From contig JAYWIR010000064.1 in the NCBI GenBank assembly GCA_036172245.1, forward strand, positions 310,001-374,000: a DNA stretch of 64,000 nucleotides, given 5' to 3'. Every line of letters begins with the position of its first letter. Position 1 is the first letter of the stretch. This document shows positions 23,082-62,887 of this stretch, in pieces. This stretch comes from Raillietiella orientalis. Its lineage: Eukaryota. The notes beneath the pieces are model-generated. The model made no database searches. It saw only the letters and a program-made list of their open reading frames with translations, and had not been told where the DNA came from. The position numbers were made by a program, and so were the translations under genes.

Positions 23082-24518
23082 TTACCTAGTCTCATCCACT
23101 CCGAGAGGCTAGGAACGCATCCAAAATCCGATTGGAAATATCTGGATATCAAGATAAGTCAAGGAATATCAAGATAGTCAAGGAAATAATCCACCTTCAT
23201 CCGACTGCCGCAAACGAATATATCTACGGTGGCAGGAAAAAAGGTTGTCTTGGGCTCATGAGGCTATCCGATGAAGCTGATACCTCCATCATGGATAGCT
23301 GTTTCAAGCTATTAACATCGCCGGACAAAATCGTGAGGAATCTCGCAGGAGAATCTTTGCGTGAGGTGATAGCAAAGAAAATATTTCAACTACCCACGGA
23401 AGAAGAAGCCGGTCAATTCCTTTCAGGGGAAAGCAAAGGGAAATTTGAAAGAAGCAGTGGAGACATCAAGAGCTTATGGACAACGGCCAGACAAGCTTCA
23501 AAACTCGCTAAGGTCACATGGGAGTTCGAAAATACTGAATCGAAAGTGAGAATTCATGGAGTGGTTGTGAGGAACCACAACCATAGTACGGTGAGGAAGA
23601 AATTTGCTACTAATGTCCGATCCATCCAACGAGAAAAGATGTGGCTTTCCTTAATGGAAAATCACCTTGACCAAGGACAAACCATGCACAGCGTTGGATT
23701 ACACAAGGATTTCAGCCACTTCCTTACTTCAGGTGACCACATTCGGTTCGCCGATTATCGCTTCATCCGTGCAGCAAGGTTAAACGTTCTACCAATAAGA
23801 GGAGCAGCAAGAAGATTACCAGCCGATCGCCTACGCCGAAGATGCAACTGTCAGGATGAGACATTACCACGCATATTAAACCACTGCGTAATGCATTTCC
23901 TGATGTACATCTCTCGACACAATGCAATCGTTCTGAAACTGCAAGCAGTCACTACAAAGATAGGGGGATGCAAGCTAGTATCAGTGGACCAAAGGATACC
24001 TGGAGTGGACTCCCTGTTGAGGCCGGATCTCGTCTTTGAGAGGTATGGAAAGTGGATCATAGTGGACATTACTTGCCCATTCGAAGGCAAGGAAAACGCG
24101 TTCACTGAAGCACGAAGAAAAAAGGAAGAAAAATATGAAAATCTAATCCATAGCATTACTGCCATCATGCAAGTTTTCATCGTGGGAGTCTTAGGATCGT
24201 GGAATCCCAAGAACGATGCTGTGCTGAGACTACTAGGAATTAAAGAAAACAACGGAAAAAGGAAAATTAAGAAAACTGTCTGTATACTGCTGTATCAGGG
24301 CAAGCAGGGACATCTACTGGAAACACCCAACGATTCAAGCGACCCTATCCGATACATAATGAAAGAGGGACAACCCAAAGACCAGTCCATTATCGACTAA
24401 ACAGCTCATCGATCAAATGGGAAAAGCCAGTCAGGCAGAGCCAGCCAGAATGATTCTGCACATGTAAAAAAAACTTAATTCAATAAACAAGAAGATATGC
24501 CGCCATTGGGTGACTTTC
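23064..24518. repeat. 18-bp target-site duplication flanking the RLE element
   Basis: CGCCATTGGGTGGCTTTC (23064-23081) and CGCCATTGGGTGACTTTC (24501-24518), 17/18 identical. Confidence 0.9.
23082..24500 (+). mobile_element. 5'-truncated RLE-type non-LTR retrotransposon (NeSL/Utopia-like), ORF 23132-24400
   Basis: YRFIRAARLNVLP, a degenerate CCHC (RRCNCQDETLPRILNHC), RHNAIV, LRPDLV, IVDITCPFE, ARRKKEEKYENL and VGVLGSWNPKND are restriction-like endonuclease motifs. A short 3' UTR carries AATAAA at 24482. Flanked by an 18-bp duplication. Confidence 0.92.
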
Positions 24519-27420
24519 GTTAGGTCTCCTCCCTTCGGCAGCAATCTCATTCCGCCTTCATGGAACGATGGAGGAGCCTTCCTTCTTTGGCGGCGAACGT
24601 CAGCTCGTGGAACAGACGCAGGTGAGCGTGCAGGTAGTGCTGGGAGTGCTTGATCGGAACACTAATACTGCCGCCACATTCTTGAGCAGTCCCGCGAACG
24701 CGCTTTTCAGAGATTTTCTCTTGAAGTCTTTGCTGTTGTTCCGTGCTCAGTTTCCTTTGCAAGTAAAGCAAAACGTCTTTGCAACTGTACCGTCGGGCAC
24801 AAATCTTGACGTCGGAAGTGCGAGGCGTAGTCTTGGTGGAAAGCCTCCGCGATTCCTTCGGAGCACATGTGCCAAACTTGGTCTCCGTACTGGATGCAGA
24901 AGACACCGGTTGTGATGTTCCTCTTCTCCAGCATGTCAACTTCTCCTTTCACGTTCATGAAGACGTACCGGCTCTCGTAATGTTGCCAGTAATTAGAGAA
25001 TGAGCAGTCTTGGATATTTGGCTCCCGGTAGGCTTCGAGCCTCATATTCCTGTCGCCGAACTGCAGGTTGCTGAACAGATGAATGATCCGCCTCATTGTG
25101 TCCCAGTCAGCAACTCTGCTGATGGTGGCGTCCCGAAGAATCGCTTCGATGAACTCCTGGTGACAGGGATGCATCTCGAACCAGGAAGGCATGCAGATGA
25201 GCGCAGACCTCGCGCCTGTCATCTTCCGAGGGTTTTCCATTCGTCGCGTAAACCATAGCAGGGGGTGGTCCGAGAGCAGAGATGGGACGTCTCGAAAACC
25301 TTGCACACGTTTCGCGATGTCCTGGCTGTTGGTCTATCGACTTGTGGCTCGCCGTGAGCCACAGCAGCCCGAACTCATCGGACAGCCTTGGACCATTCCT
25401 CTCTGGACAGCCTCGGACTGCGTGATGGTGCCCAACATGTTCAGGTCTCCCATGACGATTACGATGTCCTTTGCCGCGGTCTTGCATCGCAGCAGAGCCT
25501 GTACGGCTTCTGCGTAGCGGTAAATGTTTACCGCTACGCAGAAGCCGTACGCATTCACCAGAAACAGTTGCACACTTCCGGTCCAGGACACCGAACTCCG
25601 ACGATGCGGCCGGGTCACGGAGAGAAGGTCCCCAGAACAGTGTGAGCGATCTCTTTCTTCACGAGGATCACCACACCTTTGGTCTCCTTCTGGTCTGAGC
25701 TCAGGAACAGTCCAGTCGTCCTCGAGACTTCCAGCTGAACTTCCAGTCATCGCTCGGGCTCCAAGATGGCTTGGTGACCGAGTTCGTGGATTTCCTGTGC
25801 GCAGACGATGTGATCACGTTCAATGATCCGCGTGACCAGGCGTCGTTTTTCCTGGTTCCACAACCCCTTTACGTTTCAGGAGGCGATCTTGATGCTTCTG
25901 GCTGTCGACAGGAAGATGATCATTGGGGAGTAATTGGAGTACTTGCTCTTTCTCGTGCTTTTCTTTTGATTAGAAGACTGCGTTGGCCTCCTCTTCCCTG
26001 TTTTCTCTCCATCAACGTCGCTTTCGGACTCGACGTAGTCCGTACTGTCAGCGACTGGGTGCACAGTGCGTTAGCCGAGGTTGCGGGGGGAAACCCCGTA
26101 GATGCCGCGCTGCCGTAATTCTTCTTGATTTCGAGCAGTCTGTCCTCCAGAGCAAACCATTGCTCTTCGTTGAGGATGCGCTCGTTGATTGGGACCCGCC
26201 ACGCTGCAGACGTGCCCGAGGGCATCTCGTTGTTTCTCCATGCTGAAACCGGTTCTCACTTCTTGCTCGATCTTTCCTCTCAATTTGCGCAACTTGCGCC
26301 AACTCCTCGCTTGGCAGGGCAACTCCCGCTGGCTCCTCAGAGGCTCGTTGTAATTGTTGCCTCAGTCTTCTCTTCTCTTTCCTCCTCTTGACCTCGGTGA
26401 GCTCCGCTGCCGCTGCGGACGTCTCCTCGGTCAAAGGGGCCTTCTTCTCCTTTATTTTCTCTGTCGCCGGCGCCTCTGGAGTGGGCGGCAGTCCCTGGAC
26501 CTCCCTCCAGTTCGCATTCGTTAGCAGTCCTTAGCGTGTCCAGACATGCGGCAGAAGTAACCTAGCATCGACTGGTTACATGCTTTAAGCAAGTGGTCCT
26601 GCTGGCCGCACCGGTAACACCGTGCCCTTGGGCAACTCCCTGCACGCTGCCCGAATACCTTGCATCCTACTCAGAAGACGGACTGCTGTCTGTATTTGAT
26701 GAGGACATCATGGGAGTCGGCGACCGATGTTGACCACTTCTGGAATCTTTGCTTTTTCTTATATCTTGATCCGCGCGATATCCTTCCCGAAGAAAACCTT
26801 GCCCATGTGGTTTTGGGACTCCTCATGGGTTATTTCACCGTATTGAGACAGGAAGTCCCAGATTGCTTCCCACGGGGTGTGGATGCTAATCATTCGTTGT
26901 GCTGGTCGAGCTTTCGTCGATGCCACGCATCAGGAGTTCATTGATGTTCAGTCCTTGTTCGATAAGCGCGTCGATAAGCGGCTAGCACGATATTTGGATC
27001 GTGGAGCCCGTCGCGCAAGGAATGATGGCCTGTATAACGTCAAAATCGACGTTCTTACGGTGCAACTCGATATAAATATCTTTGACGTTTGCGATTCTTA
27101 GGGTCCAGTCCTAAAAATAACCGCCTTGACCTCTGGCCCTACCGCAGCCATCGGCGCGTCCTCTCGTTTTATCACGAGAACTTCCGGCTTTACCAGGGCC
27201 CTTCTTTTTGCTTGGAACACGTCTGGAAAATAATCTCCAGACACAGCCGCCACATGGAACGTCTTAGTAGATGCCACCACGGTCGCGCATTTCCCCGGGC
27301 AGGGTGAGTCTACTAGAGAAAGGTCATCCACACTTGGAGCTGTCCAGGCTTCTGGGGTAGGAGGGTAGTGTTCATGGGGGAAGAGGAACGTTCACCCAAG
27401 AAAGGCGGTGTCATTTTTTG
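24501..27420 (-). mobile_element. L1/Tx1-like non-LTR retrotransposon, 5' half (ORF1 gag-like, APE endonuclease, start of RT)
   Basis: Zinc knuckle CYRCGQQDHLLKAC at about 26575-26620. APE motifs KIAS.NVKG, VCAQE, LVNAYG, VMGDLN and LSDH. RLLPKGGDLTKVTQWR at the junction continues into WRPTFILNTD across the insertion. Confidence 0.88.
25501..25550. repeat. Perfect 24-bp inverted repeat with 2-nt loop inside the LINE endonuclease
   Basis: GTACGGCTTCTGCGTAGCGGTAAA-TG-TTTACCGCTACGCAGAAGCCGTAC. Confidence 0.95.
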
Positions 27421-35902: not shown

Positions 35903-37539
35903 TAGAATGCTACGGCTTAGTGTGCATTGTAAACTGCCCATCTTGCCAGGCAAAGTCGCAAGTGGATGTATGAAAATATAGAAATAGAAGGAACTGAAAT
36001 TTTGTATCGCAATAGCAAATATAAGAGTTAACATTTGGAAATCTGCATTGAATATGTGTTAAGACTAACCTGAAGCAACACTGTATTTCAAATTAAATCA
36101 AGAATCTATGGAAAACTTGTATCTTTCTCAGCAAATCACAGATATTTTATTTGGGAACCTCAGCTGGAAATGGTTTGGCACATTTGTATGCCTGGCTTTG
36201 CTGTATGCAATTTAATAATCAATAAAAAAGTTCAAAACCAGTCATTTTTTCAAGTTAGGTAAGATAATTTGCAGACATAGTATGGGGCCTGAACTTGGAC
36301 TTTTACTCAAAACCTTGAGGAGAAATTAGTCTGATACTGAAATACATTCAAGATAGGCCTTAATAGAAAAAGCATAGAATGGATACAGTTGAAAACTATA
36401 ATATAATGTATTATAGAGTTTTCAAACTACTTTTAAATTTATTTTATGAAGATTAATCCGAATCTACTTAGAAAGTGAAAACAATTGCATTTGAGCTTTA
36501 GTAGATAAAGTAACCATGAAAGTTTTTTGTATGCATTTTTTTTGAGAGCATAATAAGGGTACATTATTACACCTAAAATGGAAATAAACTATATAAATTA
36601 CACCTACTAATGATGAATGTGCTGTAGCTTCGAAATCTTTGCATTTGGTGCATCTTGGATGACTTTAGTGTAGATTTATTTAGATTTTACTTTTATTTGG
36701 ATTATATCTAGTATATATAGTTTATATCCAATATCTAGTTTATTTGATTGTATTCTTATACCACAAAATATTTTAACATTCCTGATGTTTAATTTTTATA
36801 AAGAAACAAATATGCTGCCAACTCAATTTTAAGCATATGTTATGATAACTCAAAATGCTTTACAGTTTATGCTTTACACCTAGCATTTACAGCATTTGCA
36901 AAAAGCATTTTATAACAAGTAATCAAATGAATGTGTGTATAAAAAATTGGAATAATTCAACCCAATGAAGTCTGTGCCATTCTCCTGCTATGCTGTGCTT
37001 CACATTTATGTCATTTCACTTCATTTTCTTTGAAATTGAAGATTTAAATGGGATGAAAACACTAGGTTAGAAAAATTTCGTCACTTACTGTACATGGATG
37101 GTCACAAGATAATTATTTTGAAATGCTGAATAATTAATTAAACTGAATTCATCAATAGCAAGAAGTCACATGCTTGAATATAATGCATTAAGAAGAAACC
37201 ATAGGGAATTGCAAACTTGTTCAAAGTTTGGCAAGTGATGAAACTTTTTTTGTTCTTTGCATTAATAACATTAATTATGAAACCTTTAAGCTTTTAAAAA
37301 GGTTTGCCCATAAATGCTTAGGCATAATTTAACACTGTAGTCTTTAATTCAGAGACTTTGCTAGCGAAATTTTGTAGTCGTGACCTGAATTATGCTGATC
37401 TAAGTGATGAAACCCGGTGCAAGCAAACATCAAATAAGTAATATCTGCGGTCCTACACCATAAAAGGAAACATTTCACTTGTGTTGAATTTTTGCTCACC
37501 TATTGAATAGTGTGTGATAAGATCGACAGAATCATGGTT

Positions 37540-39500
37540 ATTACTGTCAAAGCTTGTCAAAGCTTCTCTTCCAACCGTTCACATAGCACATATGTCTACA
37601 GTGGGTGATGGGCACACTGTCAGGGCCTGCAGTCACATCCTCGCCAAACTGCGCGAAGGCAGCCTTCACTTCCTTCGCAGATATTTCCTCGTCGAACATC
37701 TTCGTTTGACGTTCTTCAATTCTTCGAACCAGGTACCGCAAGAAAACTTGTTGTTGGGCCAGACACAGATGTTGTCTCCGGAAGTGCTCGACGTCATGCC
37801 GTGGTAAGGTGTCCACGATCGGCTCCGACGTTTGCCGGCTGAAGCCGTCGTGCTGGATGCATAAGCTGTCTGCAGCCATATTCTTCTTTTCCAGCACGTC
37901 TTCCCCTTTTCCATTCGCGAAGACGCACCGACAATAATACTGTTCCTATTATTAGGAGAGGGAGCCATTCTCGATGTTCTTCCTGCCTCGTTCTCTCGTC
38001 CCCGCGCTTCATGTTGCAGAAGAGGTGGAGTCGGTAGATGCTTCGGGCTGTCCCAGCCCAGGACTCTGCAAACGATGATGCTTTGCAGAGTGGCCTCGAC
38101 GACAGGGGAGCGTCTCGAAACAGGCGGAAATGCAAATGAGCGCCACCCCAGTGCGTTTCTTTCGCCGAGGATTGTTCGTCTTCCGGGACAATCGCACCAG
38201 TGCATGATCCGACAGCAGAGTCTGCGTGTCGCGAAACCTTTTCTTGCGATTCCCCACTTCGAAGCTGTAAAGGACCAGATCGATCGACAAGCGGCTTGCT
38301 GTTAGCCACGGCAGTCCGAATTCCTCGAACAGCTGCCGATACTTCCGTCATCCTTCGGCGTACTGCGAGCGGGTGATCTCGCCCCGGATGTCGACGTCTC
38401 CCAAGAGGATGACTATGTCCTTCGGCGACGCACGTTGACGCAGCACGTGCAGTATCGCCTCGGCGCACTGATGCTTTCGCTTGTGAGTTCCGTACACGTT
38501 CACCGAGGACAGGTCAACGTTGGCCGACATCCGCACACCGGCGATTCTTCGATGCATGCGGCAGAACGATTCTATAATGGTGTGGGCGAGCTCGTTCTTC
38601 ACGAGGATCGCCACATTTTGGATCTTCCACAGTCCCTCGCAGGCGAACAGCTGGGCGTTCAGTCGTCGTTCCACGTCGAAACCAATCTTCTGGCCCATGT
38701 CGTGGGTGTCATGAACGAACACTATGTCTTCGATGGTCCACACGATCCTTTTTCTTTCTGCCTCGTCCTTTGGTGCATTCACCTTCCAACAGGCGATGTG
38801 GATCCCCTTGGCGGTGGACAAGAACGAGGCCATGGGGTTTTGGCTTTTCTGGTTGCGTTTCTGCCTCGAAGACCGTTGCGGCCTCTGGGAAGGAGCTGCT
38901 TCACTTCCGACGTCACTTTCGCACTCTCCTAGGTCTGCGAATCCGCTTTTATCTTTTTGTTCTTCAGCCTTGGAGATCACTTTATGTGGAAGCGCTTGGA
39001 GGCTCACCCCCGCACAGAATTCGCACTCGACGTCCAACAGTTCGCTGCCCAGCTTTTAACGTTGCGAGTCTTTTACCCTATTTGTGTTTACGTCCTCGGG
39101 GAGATCACAGATGAGGCGCAGTATTTGCTCCTCCGCACAGTCGGAATTACCAAAGCTATCCGACTGCTCCAGGCCAAGTTCGGCCTCCGTTGCGGCACCT
39201 TCCAGCATCGTGGCTACGTTCTCCAATCGTGTTAAAATGGATTCCAGTGCCGTGGCCATACACTTGATTTGCCCTTTGAGGAAAAGAGAGGGTGTTTTCA
39301 GCATTTTTCATGAGAAAACATGGAACTGATCGAAACACGCGTGACTCCCATCCCGGCTGCGGACCGCTCCCGCAACCGACATCACGTCGAACGATGCAGC
39401 CACGACACAAATCTTCACACCATGTTCGTAATTATGTGCCGGCTGAAGAGACCGCAAATACGGAGGAGCGCCTTTCTTCAAAGGGAAACGCGTGTCTTGA
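37540..39500 (-). mobile_element. Second, diverged L1/Tx1-like LINE fragment (end of ORF1, APE endonuclease, RT lead-in)
   Basis: FLSTAKGIHIACWKVN, VNVYG, ILLGDVD, SIDLV, LLSDH and TAGPDS are colinear with and similar to 24547-26250 (FLSTARSIKIAS, VNAYG, VMGDLN). Multiple frameshifts. Confidence 0.85.
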
Positions 39501-49921: not shown

Positions 49922-52900
49922 TTACCCAATTTCAGGGCTATGATTCCAGAAGAAAAGACAAATGAATGAACACACTTACACATCCAGAGTCTGCAGAGTA
50001 GAATTGGGACACAGGACACTCGTTCGCACATGACAGAACTTATGACAACGTAATTTGCAATCCCGGCACTCGTACGCCTGCTTTCCGAGGCGTCGTGCAA
50101 ACGGAAGTTTGCACACTTCGCAATTAGCAGATCTGGAAAAGACAGCAGTCGGAGGATATTGCGATGATGGTAAGTTCCGGTAATCGAAAGGTCCATCGCG
50201 TTCCGGAGAAAACTTCAACCACATTCATCTTTATGCTTTGCTCAATAAGCTCTTCGCTTATCCATAAGCCAAGTTAACTGATTCGCGGTGAAAACGAAAA
50301 CTTCAAACACCACAGAATTTTACTAGAATTGCTTGCTTTTGCTCATACATGTTCCAAGAACCAGGCATGCATTAAAAAAAAAAAAAAAAAAATGAAGACA
50401 CCAATGCAGGCAAAAGAAAATTCTGAGATAAAAAAAGGAAAAGGAAAATCGTTCCGCGGATTAAAACACGAAAACGGAAAAAGCACTGACCAAGATTTGC
50501 ACACAAAACAGTTGAAAACACACAAAACAAAACAACCAAGATTACTATACTTCTAAAATGATACTAACGAAGGAAGATGCTTTGCCACAAATATGTGATC
50601 ATTAAATAAGTGTAACTTTGTGCCTTTCTTTCCCCACTTCTTATGTATCAAGGACAAAGGTACCATGTAATACCTATTGGAGACATGAAATAATAAGACG
50701 ATGATGAACACTTTACAGACTTTTTTATAGAATTTTCTAAGGTTTCTAAAATCAGAGTGGATGACTCATTGATGTAGGTTTCATCAGTCGCTCCAGTAAC
50801 ACCAGACACGGCCGAAATGGTAGAATGTGTGGACAAACTGTCTCCTGGAGAAAGCCGCTGAACTGAAACACAGCAAAAGACGAGGTCAAACATTAGAAAA
50901 GGGAAATTGGAGTCGTTCGTATCTATTTGAAACTATGAGCACATGCGTTCTTCACTGATTCTATGTTACATATAACTTCTTATACTCCGCACGTGATGGA
51001 TTTCTCGCAAACTTGCAAGTGTGAAGTGTACACTAGAAACGTGCAGCGAAAACAGCTGAGCAAACAACACGAGCCGGAAGGAGAAAGCAGGTCGTAAACA
51101 GTGCTCTGGTCACTGGACACAAAGAGCTCCGGGTATTTACCATTGTACATCACAAGCACGTTTGATTTCGGTGACACGCGAAGGACTTCAGAAAAGATGA
51201 AATGCTTCGATGATGAGTGGCCATGTAGACGGGGCGAGCAGCGAAATAGCAGATTTCCTCCCACAGTTGATGTGACGTGACTTTGCGTGTCAAAGAAAAT
51301 CCAAAGGGTAGCTTGCGAGAGTGTTCCGATAAAACAGGGTGTGGACCGGACCATTGTGGAATCCGGCAAAAGCAGAATAACGGCACGTTTTTCAACCAAA
51401 TAACAGTCCTGGGAGCGGTGGTAAAGGTTAATGGCAACACGTCGTCAACAGCATAGACCGAAAGCGTCAACTTATTCGACATTTATTGGCAACTAGACAA
51501 GGTTGTAATAGTTACATGCACTGGAGAAAATCAAAGGAATAAAAAATGAAGAGCAATGTTAATGAATCAGGATACTTTAGAGTTTCGCACCTTAAACGAG
51601 TAAAGTGGATGGAAAATACGGGAGATGAATCAAACTTGCCATACTCACACTATTCGCAAATCTTCGCTCAGAGCACCACATATTTGATAAATACAGTCAT
51701 TAAGAGAGAAGCATGCAATGTTTATTTAAGCGCAAAATAATAATAATAATAAACAAACACGCAAGTACTGCATTAATCCGAAGCGTCCGCTAACTTGTGA
51801 AATCCCTGACGGTAACGAAGATCGCAAAAGTTCTGTTTCTCACATTGAGGAATTCTGATGGTTGTAAACACAAGATTATTCTGCTACATCGATGAGTGAT
51901 CAGATGTGAGCACGTACTTTATTTATTCTGAAATCTTTTACAATAAAAGTATCGAAATCCACTGCGAAGAAAAATAATATGTATCATTATTTATCACCAC
52001 GCAAGGATAGAAAACAAAGAACCAGAGTCCAGAATCCTCAACCTACCTGGTAGGGAATCCGTTCCTACTTCAAGTGGAACGGATGTTGCTCTTTGCTTAT
52101 CTCGAGAATCATTCGATAACGGTTCGACTGATGAGCTGCGCGATTTGGAGCGATTGAAACGTCTTCTCAATGTACCGAAAAAGTCTCGCTTTTTCCTCAT
52201 ACTACGGCTTCTACCTACAAAGATTCATTGTGGGGATGACAGACCAGAGAATCTCTTTTTCGGACCTATAACTGCAGGTCTCTCAACTGCGGGAGCCAAT
52301 ATGGAAGGAGATTCCTCTTGCACATGAATTTTGAGGTTATGATGCTTGTCATCTGTCTAAAAAGCAAAAGGAAGTAAATAACGGATTCACTTTTAACAGG
52401 GTATACTTCCGATACATCTGAAAGAATGTAAGCAGATAAAAGAAGTGATATACTATAATCGGCACCGGGACCAGCCTATGAACGAATTCATTTTCCATTA
52501 CTGGGAACTCCTGATCCATGTGTAGAATTCGAACACGGATTCCCTTTCTCCAATAACCAATCTCTTATGCATTTCATAGTCTTGCATGCTGCATTGAATG
52601 TATGGTGCGTATGTGTGTGTATTGAATGTAGCAAAAAATCGTGTAAACAAGAATACTCTTTCAATACAAAAGCAATCAATGATGCTTCCGAGAAATCTTC
52701 AAACGAGATTCCCGTCGCCCTAATTCTGGATGCACAAAACCATATATATATATATAAAGCTTGTTGGCTTTCAGGCCGAACTATTTTGTTGGTTTTCCAG
52801 AACCTCATGTTCTGGAAAAACACGTGCCACGTGGAAGCTACTTTTTTTTCTTTTCTTTTTTTTTTTTTGTGGCTAAGTTCGTAAATTACGAATAAAATGA

Positions 52901-55900
52901 ACATGAGATTGAGGCCTGTGTACCAACAAAATGCTGCCGATATCACGTGAACTGAATGGGAAAACACTCCAGAGCTATGCTCCATACATTTGTGTCTTTC
53001 GCGCCTCAGTAACAACTCGATGCCGACTCTTTGACGTCCACAAAAAGGTCAACCCAAAACAAATATTAAAAAAAAAATTGCAAGCAGCTGTGACGAAGTT
53101 AAAATAAAAGTCATGACCAAACTAAAAGTCATGACGATCACGATCCGTTTTCAAAAGCACTTACCGAACTACCTTGAAGAGCATTATTCTTTTCTGACTT
53201 GGTATTTGCTTTTTCATGATCAGATTTCCAAGCATTTGAGCCAAGTTCTGCAGAATTATGACCTGCAAAAACAGCAAACTAATGGTCGTGTTATGCGAAA
53301 GAAGATGAGCATGAATTTATGCTTTAACGAACTTCAAATCATGAACCATTTGAAGTCGATCACACAGAAGCACATAAAAATCTCCGTATAGTTTCAGAAA
53401 TTTCTATGAAATGATTTTAAGTGTCCTTTACATTTTTAGTGTAAGCACCCGATTCATGCATTAACAACACCACGAGTGCACAGGACACACAGAACCAAGA
53501 GGGGGAGCAAAGTTCCGCATATGATGACGTATCTCCAGAACAGGACATCACTCCCGTGCAAACTTTCCTCAAATATCCTCCAGCTTCCCTACTTATAAAA
53601 TGTTCGACTTATTTCCCTGCTGTTTCTGTAGGAACACATTTTTACTGCACTTGGAAGTTGGAGGCAGTCACTGTTGGAATCAAGAGAGAACATAACATCC
53701 CTGTAGCATTTTCAAACATCTTCCTCATGCTACTCACAAAAACTCCATTCCCAGACACTGGTCTGGAGTCTAATGTCAAGCTAGGCTAGCGCTCAAGATA
53801 TTGCCAAGATCGAAAAGAAACTGTGACTTCTAATTATTGTTCCTCGTACTAGGTCAACTACAAATAACCCCTTATAAACCATTAAGTGGTTCACTGGAGT
53901 TGAATGCCATTATGGGATGTTTCTACCGATTTACCTCCCTATTGCTCATAAATGTCATCGTTTCCATAAACGGCCATCCATATAAGGCACTCAACCTTAC
54001 AATTCGGCTATTAGATTCAATTTCCCATGTTGCATGCTCTGCTTTTGGAGCACTCTCAATACCAAAAGGTCGACTCCAACACAACACATTTATTTTCACG
54101 TTGATTTCTTTCATACTTTCGCTTGAACTCCATAAATAAAATATTCGATTGGACACTAAGAAGCAACTTTAAAAGTGCACATTTAAAATACTCAAATTCC
54201 TGACTCATGTTTGCAGATATATATATATATATATATAACAAATTCCCAAACTCCCTAGACCTACGTTAAAAATTGACCGACGGATACGAATTCTTTTTCG
54301 TAATTCCCTTTTGAAGCAAAAGCTTAGGACTGGAAATATGCTTGGGAAAACTCTTATCCATCAACACCATACGATGATAAAACGCAGGAAAACTATGCCA
54401 ACCACAAACTCATCATACAATATACCAATCCGAACGGATGCATGAGACGTTGATCCTGTGTTTTCACTGCATAGGACCTTGGCTACACTCCACCCAAGGA
54501 CACCTCCAAAACCGTTCTAACAGCTGACCATCCACTTGCACTTTTTTAGTCAAGTACGCCCTAGAGTATATTCTTAATCCACGGACACCACAATATCGAG
54601 AGAAACAACCTGACGTCTCCTCGTGACCAGCAATCACCGCTTCCGCATGCTCATAAGGTTTGCCATACATCGAAGCGAAGTGCTCCCTCTGAGGAGCTGA
54701 TTGGCACAACAACAAATTCCGATACGAAACTTTCATTCCGAACTCCTCCCCCATGTTTCCTATGGTCAAACCCAGTGACATGGGCTCGAACTTTGTTGCA
54801 CATCCCTTTATCCTAACATATCTGTAATGCTTTGCAAACTGATCCAAACTCAAAGTCTTCAACAATTTCCCAATCGACATATAGTTCTCCAAATAAGCAA
54901 ACATCCAGCTGCAGTTCACATGGTCACCATCCGCTGTACGCAAACTCGAATAAGCCGACGAAGGTTGCGTATAATCCCTTACTACTACACGCGCACAACG
55001 AGACAAACGCCAACTTGGATTTCTATACATCTTTACACGTCGACGGCGCACATTCCAACGCCGACGACGCTTATATGTACTATATCCTCTCTTTTTCCAC
55101 GAGACAAACGCCGACGTTTACCAGACGTCCAAGAAGATACACGCTTCCTCTTTCTGGAACGAACAGAGCGAGGTTTCGCCATTCCGCTGCTTGACAGCGT
55201 ACTGACGACCTAAGTCAACCCCCCTCCCTTTTTCAATATTGCTGGTGGGCACGCCCACCCGACTTTATCAGCCTTCCACGAGGTCGGGTTACGCCACGCA
55301 CTTCCCAGGTGGACAGCAACAGCCTGTTCCGGATTCCTAAGTCCTCCACGATTGCGGACAAAAACCAGCTGCTAAATCCACTTACAACATATCGGAATTT
55401 CCGAAGGATTTACGTTGTCATCAAATTGCAATCTGGGTAATACTATTTACCAGATTGCATTTTCTGCGCACTTACGCAGTATATATACAAACTACACACA
55501 ACGTAAACCAAGTCTTGCTTACTGTGAATTTCCGAAAGCACGCAAAACGCTTTACGCATTATTTTTCAATTGGTGCCTAACACTTTGCAACTTCACAGAA
55601 GACGACCTAAAGGAAATCAAAGACTGGTGCAGATGCAACTGCTACTTCGCCTGCATAGGCAAAGAGACTTCCACCACTGGCACGCCACACCTACAGGGAT
55701 ACATACAACTAAAAGAACCTCGCACTTTGGCAGGACTCAAACGCAAGCCCTTCCAGAAATGCCACCTCGAAAAGGCGAGAGGTTCACCACGGAGCAACCT
55801 ACGGTACCGCACAAAAGAAGATAGAAACGCATGGACGTACGGAGCTATCCAAGAATCCAATGAGCCAGCTACATATCAGGATCTGGTAAGCCAAAAATTA

Positions 55901-58900
55901 TTTCCTACAAGATCAAAAACAATTTCTCCACTAGATACTACAACTCATCAAAGATGGCGCTGAAGAACTGTTCATATTAAACAACCACACAACATTTTAT
56001 TCGAAAAACATGAACTTCTTGAAAGAGTGCTTCAGATTCACATGAAGCAGGGCACACCCTAACCCACTTGCCAAACTACAACTGAAATCTTGGCAAATGG
56101 ACATCCTTAAGATTATACGCCAAACACCGGAACTCGGAAAAATATATTGGTATTATGACCCAGTTGGAGGCACAGGCAAGACGACCATGGCGAAATTCCT
56201 CTACTTGAAAAAGGGCGCCATTTACATGCACTCTTGTAAAAAAGCAGACGCCGCCCACATCTACAACAGCGAAAGGATCATCATCGTTGACCTCACAAGA
56301 GATAACCAAGAACATGTACAGTACGGGTTCATAGAGACCATGAAAAATGGAATTATATACCTAATCTAAGCTTCCCGTGTCATACCACAAATTTTTTTGC
56401 GTCTTCAAAAATATGGGGATGCAGTCGATTGAACTCTCAACATACATCACAAAACACAAAAAACCTCATGACCTTTGTCCTTACAAACGTGGCTTTATGG
56501 AGGACGTTACCACAACTACGTATCATTCCTAACAAAGTTAGTCAACTTCCACTCCGAAATACCTTTTGAGAACCTTGAGAAAAACGCAATGCTCCTCTTT
56601 CCGTAACATTGTGTACGGAAAGACTGTGCTTTTTGCTTTCAAAAGATACACAAATAAATACACAGATGGAGCTATGGATCAATTTTTTCTAACACTTTCT
56701 TTAACATAAGAATCAAGGTAATCAAAACGAACTCCACTTCTACAAAGTCTACTATCTCGCTCGGGGGACAAAAATAAACCCAGAAGGTTCCTCACTTTAC
56801 TGAGCAAAGTTTATCTTCCATCTCTTTAGACATTCACCAGACAACGGAAATATGACACTGTACTCCATGAGTTGATCAGCAAATACGAAACCAAAGCTTG
56901 ATGAGACGGAGACCTCAAACTCAGCGAATACGAAGGGGCTAAACATCTGAAAGGGGAAAGCTGAAGGAGAGAAAAAAATGAGGAAAAAAAAAAAAAAAAC
57001 CAATCTGCTATTACTTTCCAATCTGCTCGTGCAAGAAATGCGTGATTTTTTTCTTGGCCACGCATGCACGAAGCTTTGCTTAAGCTTTGTCTTTCAAAGT
57101 AGGAAAAGTTGGAGGCACTTATAGGGATATATCCTAAACAAAAGAGATTCCAAACGAGGTCAACTGGCAACCTATAAATATATCAGATTGCCATCACTGA
57201 TCTCCGAGGGAATTTCCTTTTTTGATAAAGCAAACTGTTTAAGAAAAGAGTTTTTCTTTTTTATTTTGGGACGGGAGAGTCATTTCTCATGAGAACGCGC
57301 CAGCCTTTAACTATGAATGGGGAGAATCTGAGAATGAATTTGGAAGATATCACCTAACCGGATGACGTAAGAAGCAGATGGATCTATGCTTATACAGGAA
57401 GCTGGTATGGATCGTATTTGCATTCACAAAATTAAAAAAACGTATGGTATTAACGGGAGCTGATTCGCTACGTTGGAAAAAAGCACAAATACTAAAAGTC
57501 ACAGTGCTTAAAGTTTCAGGATTTTACAAATTCGAGTTTAGTTGTACACAGAACTGCAAATTCATGCGGGTTAAGGGCACTTCATCAAACCAAGTTAAAT
57601 GACGTCTGACCTGCACCGCAAGTAGTGGCTTCTTGATAAGAATCCCGCCTCTGAGTAAGGCAAAAATATTTATGGGATAAAGCATCCGATAAAGGATCTT
57701 CTAACACGCCTAGTTGAAAACTCAAATATACAATTCTTAAAATTTAGATGCATTCATGGGAAAAATCCATTCAATAGCCTTTGTGAAACACACAATAGAA
57801 GCAAAATTACACAAATAGAATTACCAGACACTGTTTTATGTTATAGTGCTTGAATCGTGAGGTTTTAGATAATCATCGCGAGCGAAATCTAGAATGAGGT
57901 TATCAAGTTGGTACTGCGTTCCATATAGACGTTTATACACCCCAACTCAGATGAGTACACGCAGCAATTCCCTCATTCGTTGATGCTTTGATGTTTCCAA
58001 ACGTGAAGCAATGAATATGTCAATGATGGAGAGTCGGTTTCTGGTTATTGTGAACGCTCAAAACACCGAAAAACACAAAGAATTTGATGGGACGTAATTC
58101 ACTTTTGGGAAAATAACGCATGAAATCGATATCACATTTTCATCTTCATTTTGAAATCTGAAAACATGACAGAAAATACTGATGTGTTTACAAGGAAAAG
58201 ATCCATCGAAACTTTATTTTCAACATCGCCTATAACGAGTTGAATTATGAAGGAGAAATTTTAAAACGAAATTTTTTTTTTTATACATATTAAAGCTGTC
58301 GGAGCAACTCCGATCTCGTGGGATTTTCTTCGGATCCAAAAAATATGCCTGTTTTAAGGGCCCATTTGCTCCGTTGCCAGAATACCAAGCCTTTTTTAAA
58401 CATGTTACTCAGCAAGCTGATGTTCGTTACCGGGAAGCTTCCGCAAAACTGTGACGAAAACATTACATTAACCCTTTGGGTGCTGCGGACGCATATACGC
58501 GTCCGACGAAAACGCATAGCGCACGCTGTGGACGCAAACATGGGTTCGGCGAAACTTATCGGCGTGGACTATGGGCTCTTCTATGCGTTTGGCCAAATGC
58601 TTTGACCTTGCCCTCGCGACACGATTCGTGCTTGAGGTGGACACATACACTCGCGTTCTCGTAATTCCTTCAGCAACGACGGTAAACAGAATTCCAGTTA
58701 TATGCTCTTATATGCGAGGAAGCGTTCCGCGTCCACAGGGATCGCCACTGCGTGCCGCCAACGCGGAACGTTCAAATGTGGTGAGCTCCGCACCCAAAGA
58801 GTAAAATACAGCCGCATCCACCATGCCCAAGTGAATCATCAACCTGAATTTAAATCCAACATTCGCAAGGAACAAGAGCAAATACATGGCGTAATGTTGA

Positions 58901-61403
58901 ATGCCCCTTGGGCGAAAAATGGTTCTCCATCGTTGGTACGCAACTTTCATTCAAGCACTTCCGCTTCAAACTTTTCATTCATCGCTTCTTTGAGTTTCGA
59001 TTCTTTCTCCGTAAACGTTGCAGACAAACAAGTATGACAACTCATACAATCCCTACTTTCCTCTAGCTATGCACTGTAACAGCCATAAGATTCTTCTGCA
59101 TAAAGCGACCAATACAACCAACCGACTATAATGTACGGTGAAGAAGCACCAACGTACAACGTGCTTTTCGCTTTACTGTAAATCGCTACATAAACAACAA
59201 CATCCGCAAATCCCATTTCATTCTAATCGAAAACTTTCTCGCTCAAATGTTTGAAACTATAGATGGCGCACAACAAACGTAGTTTTCAATCTCCAAAGAT
59301 CATTAGAAATTCAAAGGAAAAATGATGCTGGAATTCAAATCGAATCAAAACTCTTTCCTAACTGGAAAACTTAAAAGCAGAGTGACCGCGGGTGCTTTCG
59401 TCTCTTTTCATCGCTCACTAAGGGAGGAGGGCAATTGTGACCAAGTGGGCGCAGCGTTAAAACGGTGTTCACAATGTCACTTCCTGATAATCATTATTCT
59501 GCCGTGTTTCTAATTTAATTGAAAGAGCTAAGTTGTGTCAAATGATTAACACTGATGGACTGAAGCAGAAAATGGTGTGCAACAACACTTTGCCGTACGA
59601 ATGTCTAAGAAGGAATATGCTATCAATCTTTAGAAGTATCTCCGGAGAATTTGTTCACGGGCATTAGTTTTAGTTCTTCTCACTTTACTGACAAACAGGG
59701 TTCTTCTACGATTACTAGTTTTTTTTTTTTTTTTTTTAAAAAAAAAAATGAAATGGTCTATTTCAAGAAACACGCTTTGGCAATGAAGTGTTCGAAAACA
59801 CCATGTAAACATAAGAAAGGGTTCTCCTTACTTCCACCGGGTTCTCGAGAAAAGCGAAAGATCTTACTCAACAAATTGACGAAACACTTGAGTCGTTCTC
59901 ATCAACCAAGAATTATTCAGCACAAACGAATGCACTATTTTTAAATTCAAGAAAGAAAATTACTATTTTGTTTACATTGAAAAAAAAATACGTTACAGTG
60001 CTCAATTTCCGAAAAGAACCGAAAATCAAAAGTTTGCAGCTGAAACTGCAAAGAATCCCCTGAAATTTTCACGGCGCTCAAAGTAATTCGGGTCCTGCAG
60101 ATGAATTTGCAGAAATTCACTGAGAACACGAAACTAAGCAATTCACAAAGCCGGGACACAAATTTCACAAAGCTTGGGACGAATCCCAAGTATGTTAAAC
60201 ACTTTAAGTGCGAGATGATTCAACGAATTACTAAGCAACGTTTCACTGAAATGCTCGAGTAAGCAAACGGCAAAGTATTACATTAAACTGCAAAGTATAT
60301 ATATATATATTATTTTCGTAGCGTTTGAATATAACCAAAGCAATCGAATTCATATCAAGGATGGTGAAAAATCATGGGGCAGTTGAGAAAAAACAAATAA
60401 CGATTCATGCTCACAAAGGAAACGTGGTGTTTACAAGTGTGACACCTCCACACACCTCGTGTGGATGAAGAAGAAGACACGTGTCTAGTGTCCATGCTGG
60501 AAAAACAGCAAGCAATACACTCGGGAATGATAACGCGACTTCAAAGATTTTTCTCATGAATGCGATCTCTATAGGCAATCCGTCGCCATGAACATGCAAA
60601 GCTTCAAATGAGATAAAGACGATCACGAACGCACGGTTAATAGGAAAAAATTCCCACCACCAAAACAAAGTTCTTAAAGAAGAATAACGAAACTTACAGT
60701 AAGGAAAAATACAAACAAATCAAATGCTTCGTTGTAAGCGCAAAACTAAAAACAAATATGAAAAATGGGAAAATAAAACAAGACAAATTCTGACAAAAGA
60801 GGGCACTGCCAATAAAAAATAGAAAAAAAAAAAAAAAAGAAGCTTCGAATTGCACTTTCAGTTTCGCAGGGCATGTGAATTCTCAAAGTCCAACCGGAAT
60901 ATCACAGCAATGTCCTAAACTCTCGGAATGTGGAGAGAGGGAGAGGGAAAATAGAGGGAAGCCATGCTCCCCACTTGGCAATCACTTAGCCAGCTAAATA
61001 GACGATTAAGTAAACACTTTCGTACTTGGTGGATAAGAAGTCTCCACGATACTGATCGGAGTGGACTGGTTGCATGGCTTGGCGAAATCAGTGTTTCTGC
61101 CTTCCAGAAACGCATCTAAAGAGCCGAAGGGAAGGTCGACGTGATCCATCAAAAAGAACTGGGAACAGATGAAAAATTCGCACAGGATAAACAGAGATTG
61201 ATTGATGCAATACCTCGATGGTTAAGCATCCGGAGACGCTGTCGCTTTGATACGGTTTCGACTGCAAAGGTATGATTTCTTTCTGCTTTGGAGAAGACAG
61301 CAATTCCTCGATAGGAACCATTCCTTGTCCCAAAAACGCTCCATCGGTTTTCGACTTGTCGTAAATTTCAAATACAATTTCCCTCGTGGAGGAATTTATT
61401 TTG
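49922..61403 (-). CDS. C2CD2L/TMEM24-like lipid-transfer protein (CG10737-like; C2 plus C-terminal C1 domain), 3' exons
   Basis: Phase-consistent exons: 61403-61214 (C2: FEIYDKSKTDGAFLGQGMVPIEELL..P.QKEIIPLQSKPY), 61158-61026, 52214-52047 (RKKRDFFGTLRRRF), 50862-50721 (YINESSTLILETLENSIKK), 50673-50569 (KGTKLHLFNDHIFVAKH), 50132-49980 (C1: CEVC...GKQAYECRDCKLRCHKFC...C) and 49937-49922 (stop). The 5' exons lie upstream. Small intervening exons may have been missed. Confidence 0.8.
54464..55182 (-). pseudogene. cap: Putative CRESS-virus capsid protein, frameshifted
   Basis: ATG at 55182 gives MAKPRSVRSRKRKRVSSWTSGKRRRLSRGK. A frameshift in the A-run at about 55092-55096 continues as RGYSTYKRRRRWNVRRRRVKMYRNP... 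and later FAKHYRYVRIKGCATKFEP, resembling the circo-like YxYYRIxKxxVxFxP strand. The Arg-rich N-terminus and position fit a capsid. Probably continues, degraded, below 54464. Confidence 0.78.
55427..55459 (-). promoter_or_regulatory. Rolling-circle origin stem-loop with nonanucleotide TAGTATTAC
   Basis: Perfect 10-bp stem TGCAATCTGG (55427-36) / CCAGATTGCA (55450-59). The 13-nt loop contains GTAATACTA (55437-45), which reads TAGTATTAC on the - strand. Confidence 0.93.
55560..56530 (+). pseudogene. rep: CRESS-virus Rep (HUH endonuclease plus SF3 helicase), frameshifted
   Basis: RCR motif I WCLTLCN, II TPHLQG, III YRTKE. After frameshifts: LKSWQ, Walker A IYWYYDPVGGTGKT, Walker B IIVDLTR and QYGFIETMKNG. 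Remnants SSK/YG (about 56400) and PH/TFVLTN (motif C, 56464-56488) follow. No intact start codon found. Confidence 0.95.
58472..58801. mobile_element. piggyBac-type MITE, copy 1 (about 330 bp)
   Basis: TTAA-CCCTTTGGGTGC ... GCACCCAAAGAG-TAAA. Near-identical to 62888-63337. Confidence 0.85.
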
Positions 61404-62887
61404 CTGAAGGCACTTTTCATTTTAGAAACCCACATCGTCAAGCAACTCACCATAAGAAGTTTTCGTTCCAAAGAGGGCAGTTGGTATTCTTTTTCACACA
61501 TGTTTGAAACTTTTGAGATGGCTCATCGATTTCAACTATGCAATAAGGTTCAGCACAACCTTACGAAAAAAAAAAGAAAACTTTCATTACATTTCTCCAG
61601 CTCTAATTAAAAAGCTGGGACACAAAGTGATCTCGAAATAAAACTCGAAAATGTACACAATATCTATGACATTGGGGGGAGGGGAGGGGGGGATGCTGCA
61701 TTTCAATGAAACAGAAATCATGTTGACCACAGTCCGTTAATGTTCGACAGATAATGAAACTTTACAAAATATTGCTGACTACTTGCCACACCAGCAAAAC
61801 TTTAGCAAATAAGAGACATCCTACAATATCATTATGTATCTACCTACAGATGAACTCTCCTATTTGGCAAACTGCTTCGGAAACATATTTGGTTCTAAGC
61901 AAAGATACTTACGATTTTCTCTGAGTAAGGAAGTAACGGTTCGTGCGCGATTAATCGAATCAAAAGTACCAATCGCAGATTCCCGAGAACCACGAGATCT
62001 CCCTGAATCACTACTCAAACTATTTCAACGGTTTCAATCCTCCATTGCACGTGTATTAAAAAGTGTGCTGATTCTGTTTACATTTCGATTACGTTCGTTA
62101 ATAAGTTCTTAAAAATTACTGTATCTGCTTGAATAAAGGAGTTTTATCGAAAACTAATCATGGATTTCACCCCACCAAAGGATGATTAAGGTGCCGGAAA
62201 ATTACTAAATAATTAACTAAAACAGTCGAACGGCATGTGCGAACATACTGTACAATCTCTTCGCTCTCATTTTTGAAAGTGAGCACGAAAAAACGGAAGA
62301 CAACGCATAGCTTTTTTGAACTTCCACAATACCCAACTCCACGGTAAACTTTCGATCTCTCCCCCCAAAGGGCAAATGCCCGGGGTTCCTATTTCCCATT
62401 TCGAACTTAAAACTAAACAGCAAGCTACTTAAAATCGAATTGCTTATCGATGTCAATTAAAAAGGGACCGCTCTAACGCACTTAATTCGCTTTGAAGATG
62501 AAAAGAGTTTTTTCGCCAACAAAATCTTTTCTTCGGTCTTTAACGAACTGTTAAAGATATAACATACGATTCCATTGTGGTCGCTAATTACAAAGCCATT
62601 ACGAAAAAATCACACTTAACAAACTAATTTAATTCTATTACATGGAATGATACTGACAACTGAGAAACATTTTTTTGAATAGTAGCGACACTCTCTATTT
62701 ACATAATAATTGCGTGCGATCTGACGCTTCATTTAACACATGCATGATGATCAACGGCACCACTGGAAACCAATTACCGATTTTTCCCTTTTCTTCCTAA
62801 TTCGATATTCCTAACGGTTCTTATCTCGCATTGAAAGAACAGATTACTTGAAATTTTGATAGACGCTTCTCGACGCTACCTTCTTAA

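Follow-up and report, generated by a model that had tools for sequence, protein, structure and literature searches.

The window (the whole 64-kb stretch of DNA analysed here) contains a near-complete, inactivated CRESS-DNA virus genome embedded in animal DNA. A capsid-like gene on the minus strand, an origin hairpin and a rep gene on the plus strand (~55530-56532) lie across positions 54464-56532 in a CRESS-type arrangement, and the stop-to-stop span of the recognisable genes is 2069 bp (Table 1). The window has one copy of the element. Disabling lesions were found in both rep and the capsid-like gene. On either side, host-like sequence that includes spliced exons and LINE-like ORFs extends for tens of kilobases, the contiguity of viral with host sequence being seen within the assembly only. 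We consider this stretch very probably an endogenous viral element, that is an about unit-length Cressdnaviricota copy in germ-line DNA, most likely within an intron and now decaying. The original prediction of a near-complete CRESS genome is therefore matched with the presence of Rep, origin hairpin and divergent capsid-like gene in the right order. The GC skew is negative over ~53800-56900, which is a wider block than the recognisable genes.

Table 1. Features of the viral element and of the neighbouring host gene (positions in the window).
Feature	Position	Strand	Basis
Host exon, C1 (phorbol-ester/DAG-type) zinc finger	49980..50132	-	Pfam, PDB, splice signals
Putative host exon closing the ~8.8-kb intron; AG 52216-52215, GT 52046-52045	52047..52214	-	Splice signals
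Main open frame of capsid-like gene, 217 codons + stop 54464-54466	54464..55117	-	ORF list
5' part of capsid-like gene in another frame: ATG 55182-55180, then basic arm	55036..55182	-	Three-frame translations
Intergenic region, flanked by the 5' ends of both genes	55183..55529	.	Sequence
Origin-type hairpin, 10-bp perfect stem + 13-nt loop	55427..55459	-	DNA fold
Nonanucleotide TAGTATTAC in hairpin loop, on capsid-coding strand	55437..55445	-	Sequence
Possible TATA-like run, ~45 nt upstream of rep's aligned start	55480..55487	+	Sequence
Rep exon 1: HUH endonuclease, motifs I-III	55530..55885	+	ORF list, Pfam, PDB, profile
Candidate 49-nt intron, GTAAGC ... CACTAG	55886..55934	+	Sequence, splice-pair scan, alignment to relative
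Rep exon 2: linker + SF3 helicase (Walker A, Walker B)	55935..56366	+	ORF list, profile, alignment
Candidate Rep C-terminal tail, +1 frame, 55 codons, stop 56530-56532	56365..56532	+	ORF list
Putative host exon; donor opens the ~8.8-kb intron containing the element	61026..61158	-	Splice signals only
Host exon, second half of C2 domain	61214..61403	-	Splice signals; Pfam C2 on unspliced frame

Origin region and host surroundings

A Cressdnaviricota-type stem-loop with a NANTATTAC-type nonanucleotide is present at the origin. The two stem arms (55427-55436 / 55450-55459) form a DNA fold of -10.8 kcal/mol (z = -4.73), and an equally good fold was obtained in 1 of 200 shuffles; the perfect hairpin claimed earlier is thus borne out, and it has the motif at its apex. 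At the nonanucleotide the rep strand reads TAATACTAT-type. The motif agrees with the ICTV consensus (T/n)A(G/t)TATTAC (PMC5656780). The window contains 10 copies of the bare 8-nt core where 7.4 are expected, so it is the position at the stem apex that matters. Two perfect repeats are also present in the intergenic region, one direct of 11 nt (55395-55405 and 55526-55536), the other inverted and of 10 nt (55409-55418 / 55498-55507). From the capsid-like ATG (55182) there are ~350 bp to the aligned start of rep and ~385 bp to its first conserved residues, which is congruent with the spacing of about 380 bp given before.

The exon boundaries proposed at 61026 and 52214 have AG/GT signals on the minus strand. 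The first half of a C2 domain ends at 61451 and is separated from the second half by a 47-nt host intron (61404-61450), while the exon at 52047..52214 encodes a serine/arginine-rich stretch. The C1 exon matched Pfam C1_1 above the cut-off (E 1.1e-8) and the C1 domains of protein kinase C in PDB (E 5e-5 to 3e-3). The label "C2CD2L-like" formerly given to the gene was not recovered: Pfam C2 reached E 0.084, the PDB search of the C2 exon matched the NEDD4L C2 domain only (E 0.12), and the word-index search was without match. Most likely the element sits in an intron, the gene being one that encodes C2 and C1 domains; the splice signals at the flanking exons agree with the intron placement claimed at first, and they are its sole basis. 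A flanking BTB exon (Pfam E 2.3e-24) had arthropod lola/fruitless-type clusters as its nearest in the Atlas, which we take as a lead only. The host animal looks arthropod-like.

The rep gene and its candidate intron

The sequence matches leave the identity of Rep certain. Pfam Viral_Rep was matched with E 8.9e-15 and 55.2 bits (cut-off 26), and a profile built from 21 relatives matched the endonuclease (E 6.8e-39, 55568-55870) and the helicase (E 2.8e-37, 56067-56360). Out of 2117 pieces from all six frames of the window, just 2 matched this profile. In the alignment with relatives, motifs I, II and III of the HUH endonuclease as well as Walker A and Walker B are visible, with one unusual residue each in motifs I and III. 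Among solved structures, circovirus and nanovirus Rep endonuclease domains made up eight of the ten sequences listed at E<=1 (E 9.6e-13 to 6.6e-7), and the circovirus matches of the endonuclease half include 7lar, a full-length Rep chain of porcine circovirus 2 (E 2.5e-9). The helicase half matched no Rep among the PDB chains at E<=1. The only other Pfam match of the endonuclease piece at E<=1 was LRR_5 (E 0.042), below the cut-off.

No in-frame ATG occurs from the upstream stop (55373-55375) to motif I. An in-frame TGA (56043-56045) interrupts exon 2 and a TAA (56367-56369) ends it; a frame break near 56365 precedes the final helicase motifs. The tail, where motif C and the arginine finger are expected, lies behind this break; the profile gave a non-significant E of 4.3 for it and Pfam gave no match. 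Among well-conserved (>=90%) columns, the window departs from its relatives at 2 of 16 in the endonuclease and 1 of 9 in the helicase, and the decay of rep appears modest.

Frameshifts had been noted in the pseudogenes. Those near 56365 and within 55036-55117 (in the capsid-like gene) are present, but the supposed frameshift between the Rep domains is probably a 49-nt GT..AG intron of the virus. The segment starts at a codon boundary and its excision leaves the frame intact; pyrimidines make up 60% of the 20 nt preceding the AG. Only four GT..AG pairs restore the frame, and this one is the shortest. In the alignment to the relative P0051, residue 114 is the last of exon 1 and residue 118 is residue 5 of exon 2; because the two pieces abut, there is no room for 16 codons between them. 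The 47-nt intron of the nearby host gene is of similar length.

That the segment is an insertion gained after integration seems to us a good deal less probable. Other lesions are indeed present in the element, and of 64 related contigs in which both Rep domains occur, none has the two in different frames, so that an intron is no trait of the nearest known relatives. However, an insertion would have to account for the codon-boundary position, the exact GT and AG ends, the pyrimidine-rich 3' end, the closeness in length to the host intron and the abutting of the flanks in the relative. By our own arithmetic, GT and AG ends fall by chance on a random insert in about 1/256 per exact placement, and no duplication was found flanking the segment.

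The capsid-like gene

The minus-strand ORF is a probable capsid gene, a reading which draws on its position, an arginine-rich arm, a sub-threshold Pfam match and a language-model lead. An arginine-rich N-terminus is typical of CRESS capsids. Here the arginine-rich stretch of the 5' part carries on at the 5' end of the main frame. The 5' frame closes at 55033-55035, and the frame break lies somewhere in 55036-55117, behind the basic arm; since this interval contains a 5-nt homopolymer (55092-55096), the break could be an assembly error. Pfam Circo_capsid was matched with E 9.3e-5 and 23.3 bits, under its gathering score of 36.2; when the arm was removed this match was lost and no Pfam match was left. 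In the ESM Atlas the first match (0.94) was a Cressdnaviricota cluster with 197 of 256 features in common and Circo_capsid on 29% of its members, and all ten family sets listed were small ssDNA virus capsids; both results are leads only.

Other searches gave no relative of this ORF. The word-index search returned 49 candidates, none at E<=0.01; tblastn and tblastx against 74 related contigs found nothing; the best PDB match had E 1.2; and hhalign against seven capsid clusters of relatives reached a probability of 5% at best (controls up to 0.8%). The only match of a metagenome scan was false, being a bacterial NuoG-like gene. The jelly-roll check proposed earlier gave no profile match and an AF2 model with pLDDT 31. 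Of the earlier capsid claim, the minus-strand ORF and its position are confirmed; its capsid identity is weakly confirmed, the Pfam match staying below threshold and depending on the basic arm.

It could accordingly be asked whether only rep and the origin are viral and the ORF is a chance frame or another viral accessory gene, as the loss of significant capsid homology without the arm and the low pLDDT would suggest. We regard it as unlikely. A 217-codon frame with an ATG-led basic arm lies exactly at the position of the capsid gene in relatives, the Atlas sets listed are all ssDNA virus capsids (a lead only), and CRESS capsids often have no mutually detectable sequence similarity (PMC7493932, PMC6069186).

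Relatives, origin and precedents

The source virus lineage is, judged by protein sequence, without close known relative among representative proteins. Rep matched 4372 of 1.84 billion such proteins at E<=0.001; the best was 43% identical in the endonuclease domain, and none of the ~1.8 billion exceeded ~46% identity, the nearest being at 40-46%. This agrees with the original guess that metagenomes would be the only source of this lineage, if it is known at all. The profile and phylogeny proposed for Rep succeeded in the matches, but in the domain trees the branch of the window is long, no neighbour being closer than 1.6 substitutions per site, and its nearest grouping is supported at 0.07-0.47.

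The five closest IMG/VR contigs (L001, L002, L005, L059, L061), of 2.2-2.5 kb, are the best helicase matches to the window (37-43% identity). As in the window, all five have rep and an ORF with a basic arm pointing away from a hairpin, whose C/TAGTATTAC motif is on the non-rep strand. The contigs differ from the window in having no detectable capsid similarity to it, an unspliced rep where the window has a candidate intron, and 27-35 nt between hairpin and rep ATG as against ~70 nt. Among the related metagenomic contigs of up to 2.7 kb, 50 of 58 share this layout, six have the motif on the rep strand and two have none.

The most obvious known group for comparison is the genus Cyclovirus of the Circoviridae, with endogenous copies in mites (Varroa, Tropilaelaps), ants (Pseudomyrmex) and a tapeworm (Hymenolepis), where, in the parts of the reports consulted, a partial capsid is limited to the copy in the tapeworm (PMC6069186, PMC3198968, PMC6186406). 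Like the element in the window, cycloviruses have an ambisense two-gene genome, TAGTATTAC on the capsid strand and invertebrate hosts, and several members have rep introns. The motif strand, ambisense genes and possible rep intron are ICTV cyclovirus traits (PMC5656780), the recognisable 2069-bp span is at the top of the 1.7-2.1 kb range of the family, and the endonuclease domain has its best matches among solved structures in circovirus Reps, beside the weak Circo_capsid match. A 3' intergenic region that is small or missing is a further mark of cycloviruses. Nevertheless, it is quite improbable that the element is a true cyclovirus. The helicase half is not circovirus-type in the PDB test, although the library includes 7lar, so that a relation over the whole length to Circoviridae Reps was not found, with the PDB matches of both halves as a proxy. 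The relatives of the window have a different helicase signature in the alignment, the branch in the domain trees is long and poorly supported, and the capsid score is below the gathering threshold of Circo_capsid, the family that would mark a Cyclovirus. The identical layout is also found in many unclassified arthropod-associated CRESS genomes in Table 3 of PMC6186406. Genomoviridae and Geminiviridae likewise have a capsid-sense virion strand and a rep spliced in many members, and genomoviruses are marked type II with introns in the same table (PMC6186406), but the nonanucleotide of the window is circovirus-type. Membership in these families found no support, as Viral_Rep and no geminivirus-type Rep family (Gemini_AL1) was matched.

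It is far less probable still that the animal's genome lacks the viral stretch and that the assembler joined free virus, present as a contaminant, to the contig. Just one public run had 5% of the sampled words, and one capsid lesion is in a homopolymer-containing interval, as such an artefact might show. But the stretch is in the middle of the 64-kb window with host-like sequence at both sides, the missing rep start codon and the in-frame TGA are substitution-type lesions impossible in a replicating virus, and the circle is opened once, without the terminal redundancy usual for assembled circular genomes.

For the endogenous element we propose the following course. The genome of the source virus would have been no shorter than ~2.07 kb, its two genes diverging from a common intergenic region. 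Its Rep, an HUH endonuclease with an SF3 helicase, would nick the TAGTATTAC hairpin loop for rolling-circle replication, and because the motif is on the capsid-coding strand the packaged strand would be capsid-sense, as in cycloviruses. The rep message probably required removal of the 49-nt intron, which is compatible with nuclear replication in a host using ~47-nt introns. A double-stranded replicative form of nearly one unit length may then have joined into germ-line DNA, by end-joining of a broken form rather than through a Rep-made end at the nick site. Decay after integration would have left rep without start codon and with an in-frame stop and a frame break, and the capsid-like gene with a frame break of its own; the element is non-functional today.

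The rarity of capsid gene, origin and rep together was overstated in the original prediction, as whole-genome CRESS integrations are already in print and the element thus adds to a known kind. According to PMC10193959, 17 of 36 krikovirus Cap-like EVEs of reptiles and insects are Rep+Cap integrations "as whole virus genomes", and PMC7493932 describes such integrations in Entamoeba and Giardia (Naryaviridae/Nenyaviridae/Vilyaviridae). In these krikovirus/Draupnirviridae and protist copies, as in the window, Rep and Cap adjoin within the host's DNA and both contain stop codons; such copies are read as the integration of a whole circle and serve to link viruses of a metagenomic lineage with their host (PMC10193959, PMC7493932). 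The element studied here differs in its intact origin hairpin and apparent rep intron, features absent from the portions of those descriptions that we consulted (PMC10193959, PMC7493932). It is no new class of biology, and arthropod CRESS fossils have already been described.

Most CRESS-DNA viruses are metagenomic circles without an attached host. A chromosomally fixed copy would mean that the lineage once replicated in nuclei of the germ line or early embryo of this animal, and because rep, origin and capsid-like gene were kept together, the whole genome plan (strand polarity, probable intron and gene order) is recorded. We tentatively speculate, as a possibility well short of even, that this fossil is young and little decayed and stems from an arthropod CRESS lineage unsampled at family level, with cyclovirus-type layout, spliced rep, non-circovirus helicase and orphan capsid. 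If so, it would be the first direct host assignment for a metagenome-only type II group, that of the five closest contigs and others like them, and exogenous relatives may still circulate in the host because the lesions are few. The orphan capsid sequence could be used for fishing out living relatives.

The rep gene and its candidate intron

The element at 54464-56532 had the complete layout of a small CRESS (circular Rep-encoding ssDNA) virus, with the circle opened between the 3' ends of both genes. The endonuclease piece of rep matched Pfam Viral_Rep (E 8.9e-15; score 55.2 bits, cut-off 26), and solved circovirus and nanovirus Rep endonuclease domains matched it at E 9.6e-13 to 6.6e-7. Those Reps were eight of the ten sequences listed at E≤1, the remaining two being unrelated chance rows. 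When 1.84 billion representative proteins were searched exhaustively with the endonuclease piece, 4372 relatives had E≤0.001 and 213 had E≤1e-10. No relative reached E≤1e-30; the top one had E 2.1e-22 and 43% identity. The helicase frame matched 38 of 154 stored proteins (best E 2.2e-24). A profile of 21 full-length relatives matched 55568-55870 in the endonuclease (E 6.8e-39) and 56067-56360 in the helicase (E 2.8e-37). When the whole window was cut into 2117 six-frame pieces, only these two matched this profile; the window holds one Rep copy, without scattered fragments. When viral contigs were scanned with the endonuclease piece as a single protein, ten patterns matched and none was confirmed.

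Three defects were identified in rep (see the table). At the columns conserved in at least 90% of relatives, the element deviated at two of 16 in the endonuclease (one in motif I, one in motif III) and at one of nine in the helicase; the median relative deviated at none, and 33 of 178 relatives deviated at two or more endonuclease columns. The lesions together with the few deviations at conserved columns mean that the copy is dead yet only lightly eroded. The 55-codon frame behind the helicase may be the continuation of the Rep C-terminus. The frame 56471-56566 was dropped for it as the tail, and neither frame was significant.

The element is real, and the core of its interpretation as a virus fossil stands. 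The original prediction described cap, origin and rep of a CRESS virus; Rep homology, hairpin, divergent layout and lesions support this, with cap as the probable part; the HMM and BLAST check of Rep that it proposed is answered by the Viral_Rep match and by the profile matches of both halves.

Features of the viral element and of the surrounding host sequence (window positions)
Feature	Position	Strand	Remarks
rep endonuclease frame	55376-55963	+	HUH endonuclease domain
rep second frame	55935-56366	+	linker and SF3 helicase, Walker A and B; one TGA interrupts
Candidate intron	55886-55934 (49 nt)	+	starts GTAAGC, ends CACTAG
Candidate Rep C-terminal tail	56365-56529 (55 codons)	+	profile E 4.3, no Pfam match
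rep defect 1		+	no ATG in frame from upstream stop to motif I
rep defect 2	56043-56045	+	in-frame TGA
rep defect 3	56367-56369	+	frame closed
Capsid-like gene, 5' part	ATG 55182, frame closes 55033-55035	-	strongly basic arm
Capsid-like gene, main frame	55117-54467 (217 codons), stop 54464-54466	-	continues basic stretch
Origin hairpin	55427-55436 / 55450-55459		between genes; perfect 10-bp stem, 13-nt loop
Perfect direct repeat, 11 nt	55395-55405 and 55526-55536		GAATTTCCGAA; flanks hairpin
Perfect inverted repeat, 10 nt	55409-55418 and 55498-55507		flanks hairpin
Host C2-domain exons (two)	61.56-61.21 kb	-	
Putative host exon	61158-61026	-	
Putative host exon	52214-52047	-	clean AG/GT signals
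C1 zinc-finger exon	50132-49980	-	Pfam E 1.1e-8
BTB/POZ exon	18666-19364 (232 codons)	-	Pfam E 2.3e-24
Long ORFs resembling LINE-type retrotransposon remnants	22394-26530 and 37511-39114	both	reverse-transcriptase and endonuclease likeness by eye

The original prediction spoke of frameshifts. The break between the two rep frames is better read as a GT..AG intron of 49 nt, removal of which joins the frames at a codon boundary. In this zone, the frame is restored by only four of the GT..AG pairs spanning 30 nt or more. The 49-nt pair is the shortest of them; a 232-nt pair, the longest, would delete the third nuclease motif, and a 142-nt pair would delete most of the linker. In the BLASTP alignment to the relative P0051, the last residue of exon 1 fell on residue 114 and residue 5 of exon 2 on residue 118, so the exon pieces are directly adjacent and nothing in P0051 corresponds to the intervening 16 codons. 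The C2-domain host gene 5 kb off has a GT..AG intron of 47 nt (61404-61450, minus strand), whose removal gives uninterrupted C2 sequence, and thus introns of about this size are processed in this animal. Introns in rep are recorded in several cycloviruses (PMC5656780), and Table 3 of PMC6186406 records them in many genomoviruses. Rep domains in different frames were found in none of 64 related viral contigs, so the intron would be private to this lineage; the same count favours a later insertion of the 49-nt segment, which is possible. From these sequence features, we consider the segment probably a viral rep intron rather than a frameshift.

Capsid-like gene and origin of replication

The capsid-like gene occupied the position of the capsid gene in related contigs, and its N-terminus was arginine-rich. 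Because the 217-codon frame carries on the basic stretch of the ATG-led frame, one frame break lies within 55036-55117. This interval includes a 5-nt homopolymer, so an assembly error is possible for this one lesion. Pfam Circo_capsid matched the gene with E 9.3e-5, under the gathering score, and the match was lost once the arginine-rich arm was cut off. As a lead and not a test, a language-model search pointed to a Cressdnaviricota cluster (0.94, 197 of 256 features in common) in which 29% of members carry Circo_capsid; the remaining sets listed by this search were capsids of small ssDNA viruses. No relative was found by word-index protein search, tblastn against the 74 related contigs gave no match, and the best values were E 0.18 in tblastx against the same contigs, E 1.2 against PDB and 5% probability in hhalign profile-profile comparison with seven capsid clusters of relatives. 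AF2 without an alignment gave the ORF a mean pLDDT of 31.3. Of the predicted cap gene, the position, the arginine-rich arm and the sub-threshold Circo_capsid match speak in favour, while the low pLDDT and the lack of a profile or PDB match speak against it. From the sequence, we consider the minus-strand ORF a probable capsid gene.

The single locus that a metagenome scan gave for the capsid query, L075, was rejected as a capsid relative: it is a bacterial NADH-dehydrogenase-like contig sharing an 8-residue word by chance, and it seems to hold an internal inverted duplication. A 17-nt repeat had suggested an internal duplication of 101 nt at the 5' end of the capsid-like gene; this was also rejected, as self-comparison of the region showed no longer repeat.

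The original prediction also placed a perfect origin hairpin between the divergent genes, and it was confirmed. Its DNA fold had -10.8 kcal/mol (z = -4.73), and one of 200 shuffles was equally stable. On the minus strand, which is the coding strand of the capsid-like gene, the loop reads TAGTATTAC (55437-55445). It fits the Circoviridae nonanucleotide consensus (T/n)A(G/t)TATTAC (PMC5656780) and is a circovirus-type motif. The 8-nt core had ten copies in the window against 7.4 expected; the motif by itself is uninformative, and its position at the stem apex between diverging genes is the informative part. A motif on the capsid strand is the trait which distinguishes Cyclovirus from Circovirus in the ICTV profile (PMC5656780).

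The direct and inverted repeats lie symmetrically about the hairpin, and the second direct-repeat copy overlaps the expected rep start. These repeats could be candidate Rep-binding or promoter elements. The repeat core GGAATTTCC may resemble a Rel/NF-kB-type site.

Relatives, classification and published endogenous elements

An IMG/VR scan with a small alignment gave 74 loci. The five best unit-length loci (L001, L002, L005, L059 and L061) had sizes of 2237-2472 nt, and in all of them rep and a basic-armed ORF diverge from a hairpin with a 9-11-bp stem, carrying CAGTATTAC on the strand opposite rep. This layout was present in 50 of 58 related contigs of up to 2.7 kb; six had the motif on the rep strand and two had no hairpin by the criteria used. 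Cycloviruses and several unclassified arthropod-associated genomes are given with the type II layout, the motif being TAGTATTAC or CAGTATTAC, in Table 3 of PMC6186406.

In the domain trees the element had a long branch: every neighbour was 1.6 or more substitutions per site away, and the top identities were 46% and 42%. The long branch means mostly an unsampled virus lineage rather than decay. Among solved structures, the full-length PCV2 Rep chain was matched by the endonuclease half, and no circovirus Rep was found at E≤1 with the helicase half; on this basis the element is kept out of Circoviridae. It resembles cycloviruses in the ambisense type II layout but differs from them in the helicase half, in this comparison with solved structures at E≤1. 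Judged from these features, the most fitting name would be unclassified cressdnavirus, with a genome plan like that of cycloviruses.

In all five closest contigs, an open frame of 162-183 codons, read in a frame other than that of rep, also overlaps rep's 5' half (L001 106-621, L002 105-593, L005 1250-1738, L059 1452-1964 and L061 219-770, plus strand). The counterpart in the window had 98 codons (55528-55824). These frames could represent an overlapping gene that is conserved, or could simply follow from conservation of the rep sequence.

The original prediction held that many reported CRESS elements are rep-only fragments, and such fossils do dominate: Table 1 of Liu et al. counts 302 Rep-like against three capsid-like sequences in 35 species (PMC3198968), and none of the new invertebrate sequences of Dennis et al. 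was derived from a capsid gene (PMC6069186). Complete CRESS integrations are already described, and the element belongs among them. In the section of PMC10193959 on krikovirus Cap-like elements carried by snakes, lizards and turtles and by insects, 17 of 36 were Rep-paired 'as whole virus genomes'. Whole CRESS genomes on Entamoeba and Giardia contigs appear in an excerpt of PMC7493932, and section 13 of PMC6186406 describes a tapeworm cyclovirus copy with Rep and partial capsid. An arthropod case with intact origin hairpin and rep intron was not found in the excerpted literature, on which the supplements may bear. The element offers a well-preserved genome plan and a host link for an unsampled lineage, and its importance is moderate.

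Host context and insert ends

The original prediction located the element between C2CD2L-like exons at 61026 and 52214. These exon boundaries enclose the element, which therefore lies within a gap of about 8.8 kb. The boundaries stood but the C2CD2L name did not: the C2 exon piece had E 0.084 with Pfam C2 and E 0.12 with PDB, and its word-index search gave 633 candidates, none at E≤0.01. The flanking exons are putatively one gene. The nearest Atlas clusters of the BTB exon were arthropod lola/fruitless-type proteins, which is a lead. Among public sequencing runs, one DNA run shared 0.05 of the sampled words, while the listing showed no RNA run.

A block of negative GC skew (C above G on the plus strand, -0.12 to -0.37 in 300-nt windows) extended over about 53800-56900, exceeding the element by about 650 bp on the left and 370 bp on the right. 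This block, of about 3.1 kb, may show how far the insert really reaches. The skew was rejected as a signature of the lineage: the median was 0.02 over 74 related contigs, among which only L003 and L004 showed values of -0.12 to -0.14.

A processed-mRNA copy is unlikely, since the element has the origin as well as the two divergent genes and retains the candidate intron. With the hairpin intact and inside the element, Rep cutting at the nick site would not have produced the ends. Neither flank resembled the opposite end of the element; there is thus no sign of a longer-than-unit concatemer, and concatemer or tandem integration was rejected. The simplest route would be that a double-stranded replicative form broke in the short stretch separating the two stop codons and was end-joined into a chromosomal break.

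A (TA)n microsatellite is located at 54218-54238, just left of the start at 54250 first assigned to the element, and an A16 run at 56975-57000, to the right of the rep stop by about 440 bp. An insert boundary could be near either of them. AATAAA is present at 56653-56658, about 120 nt past the rep stop.
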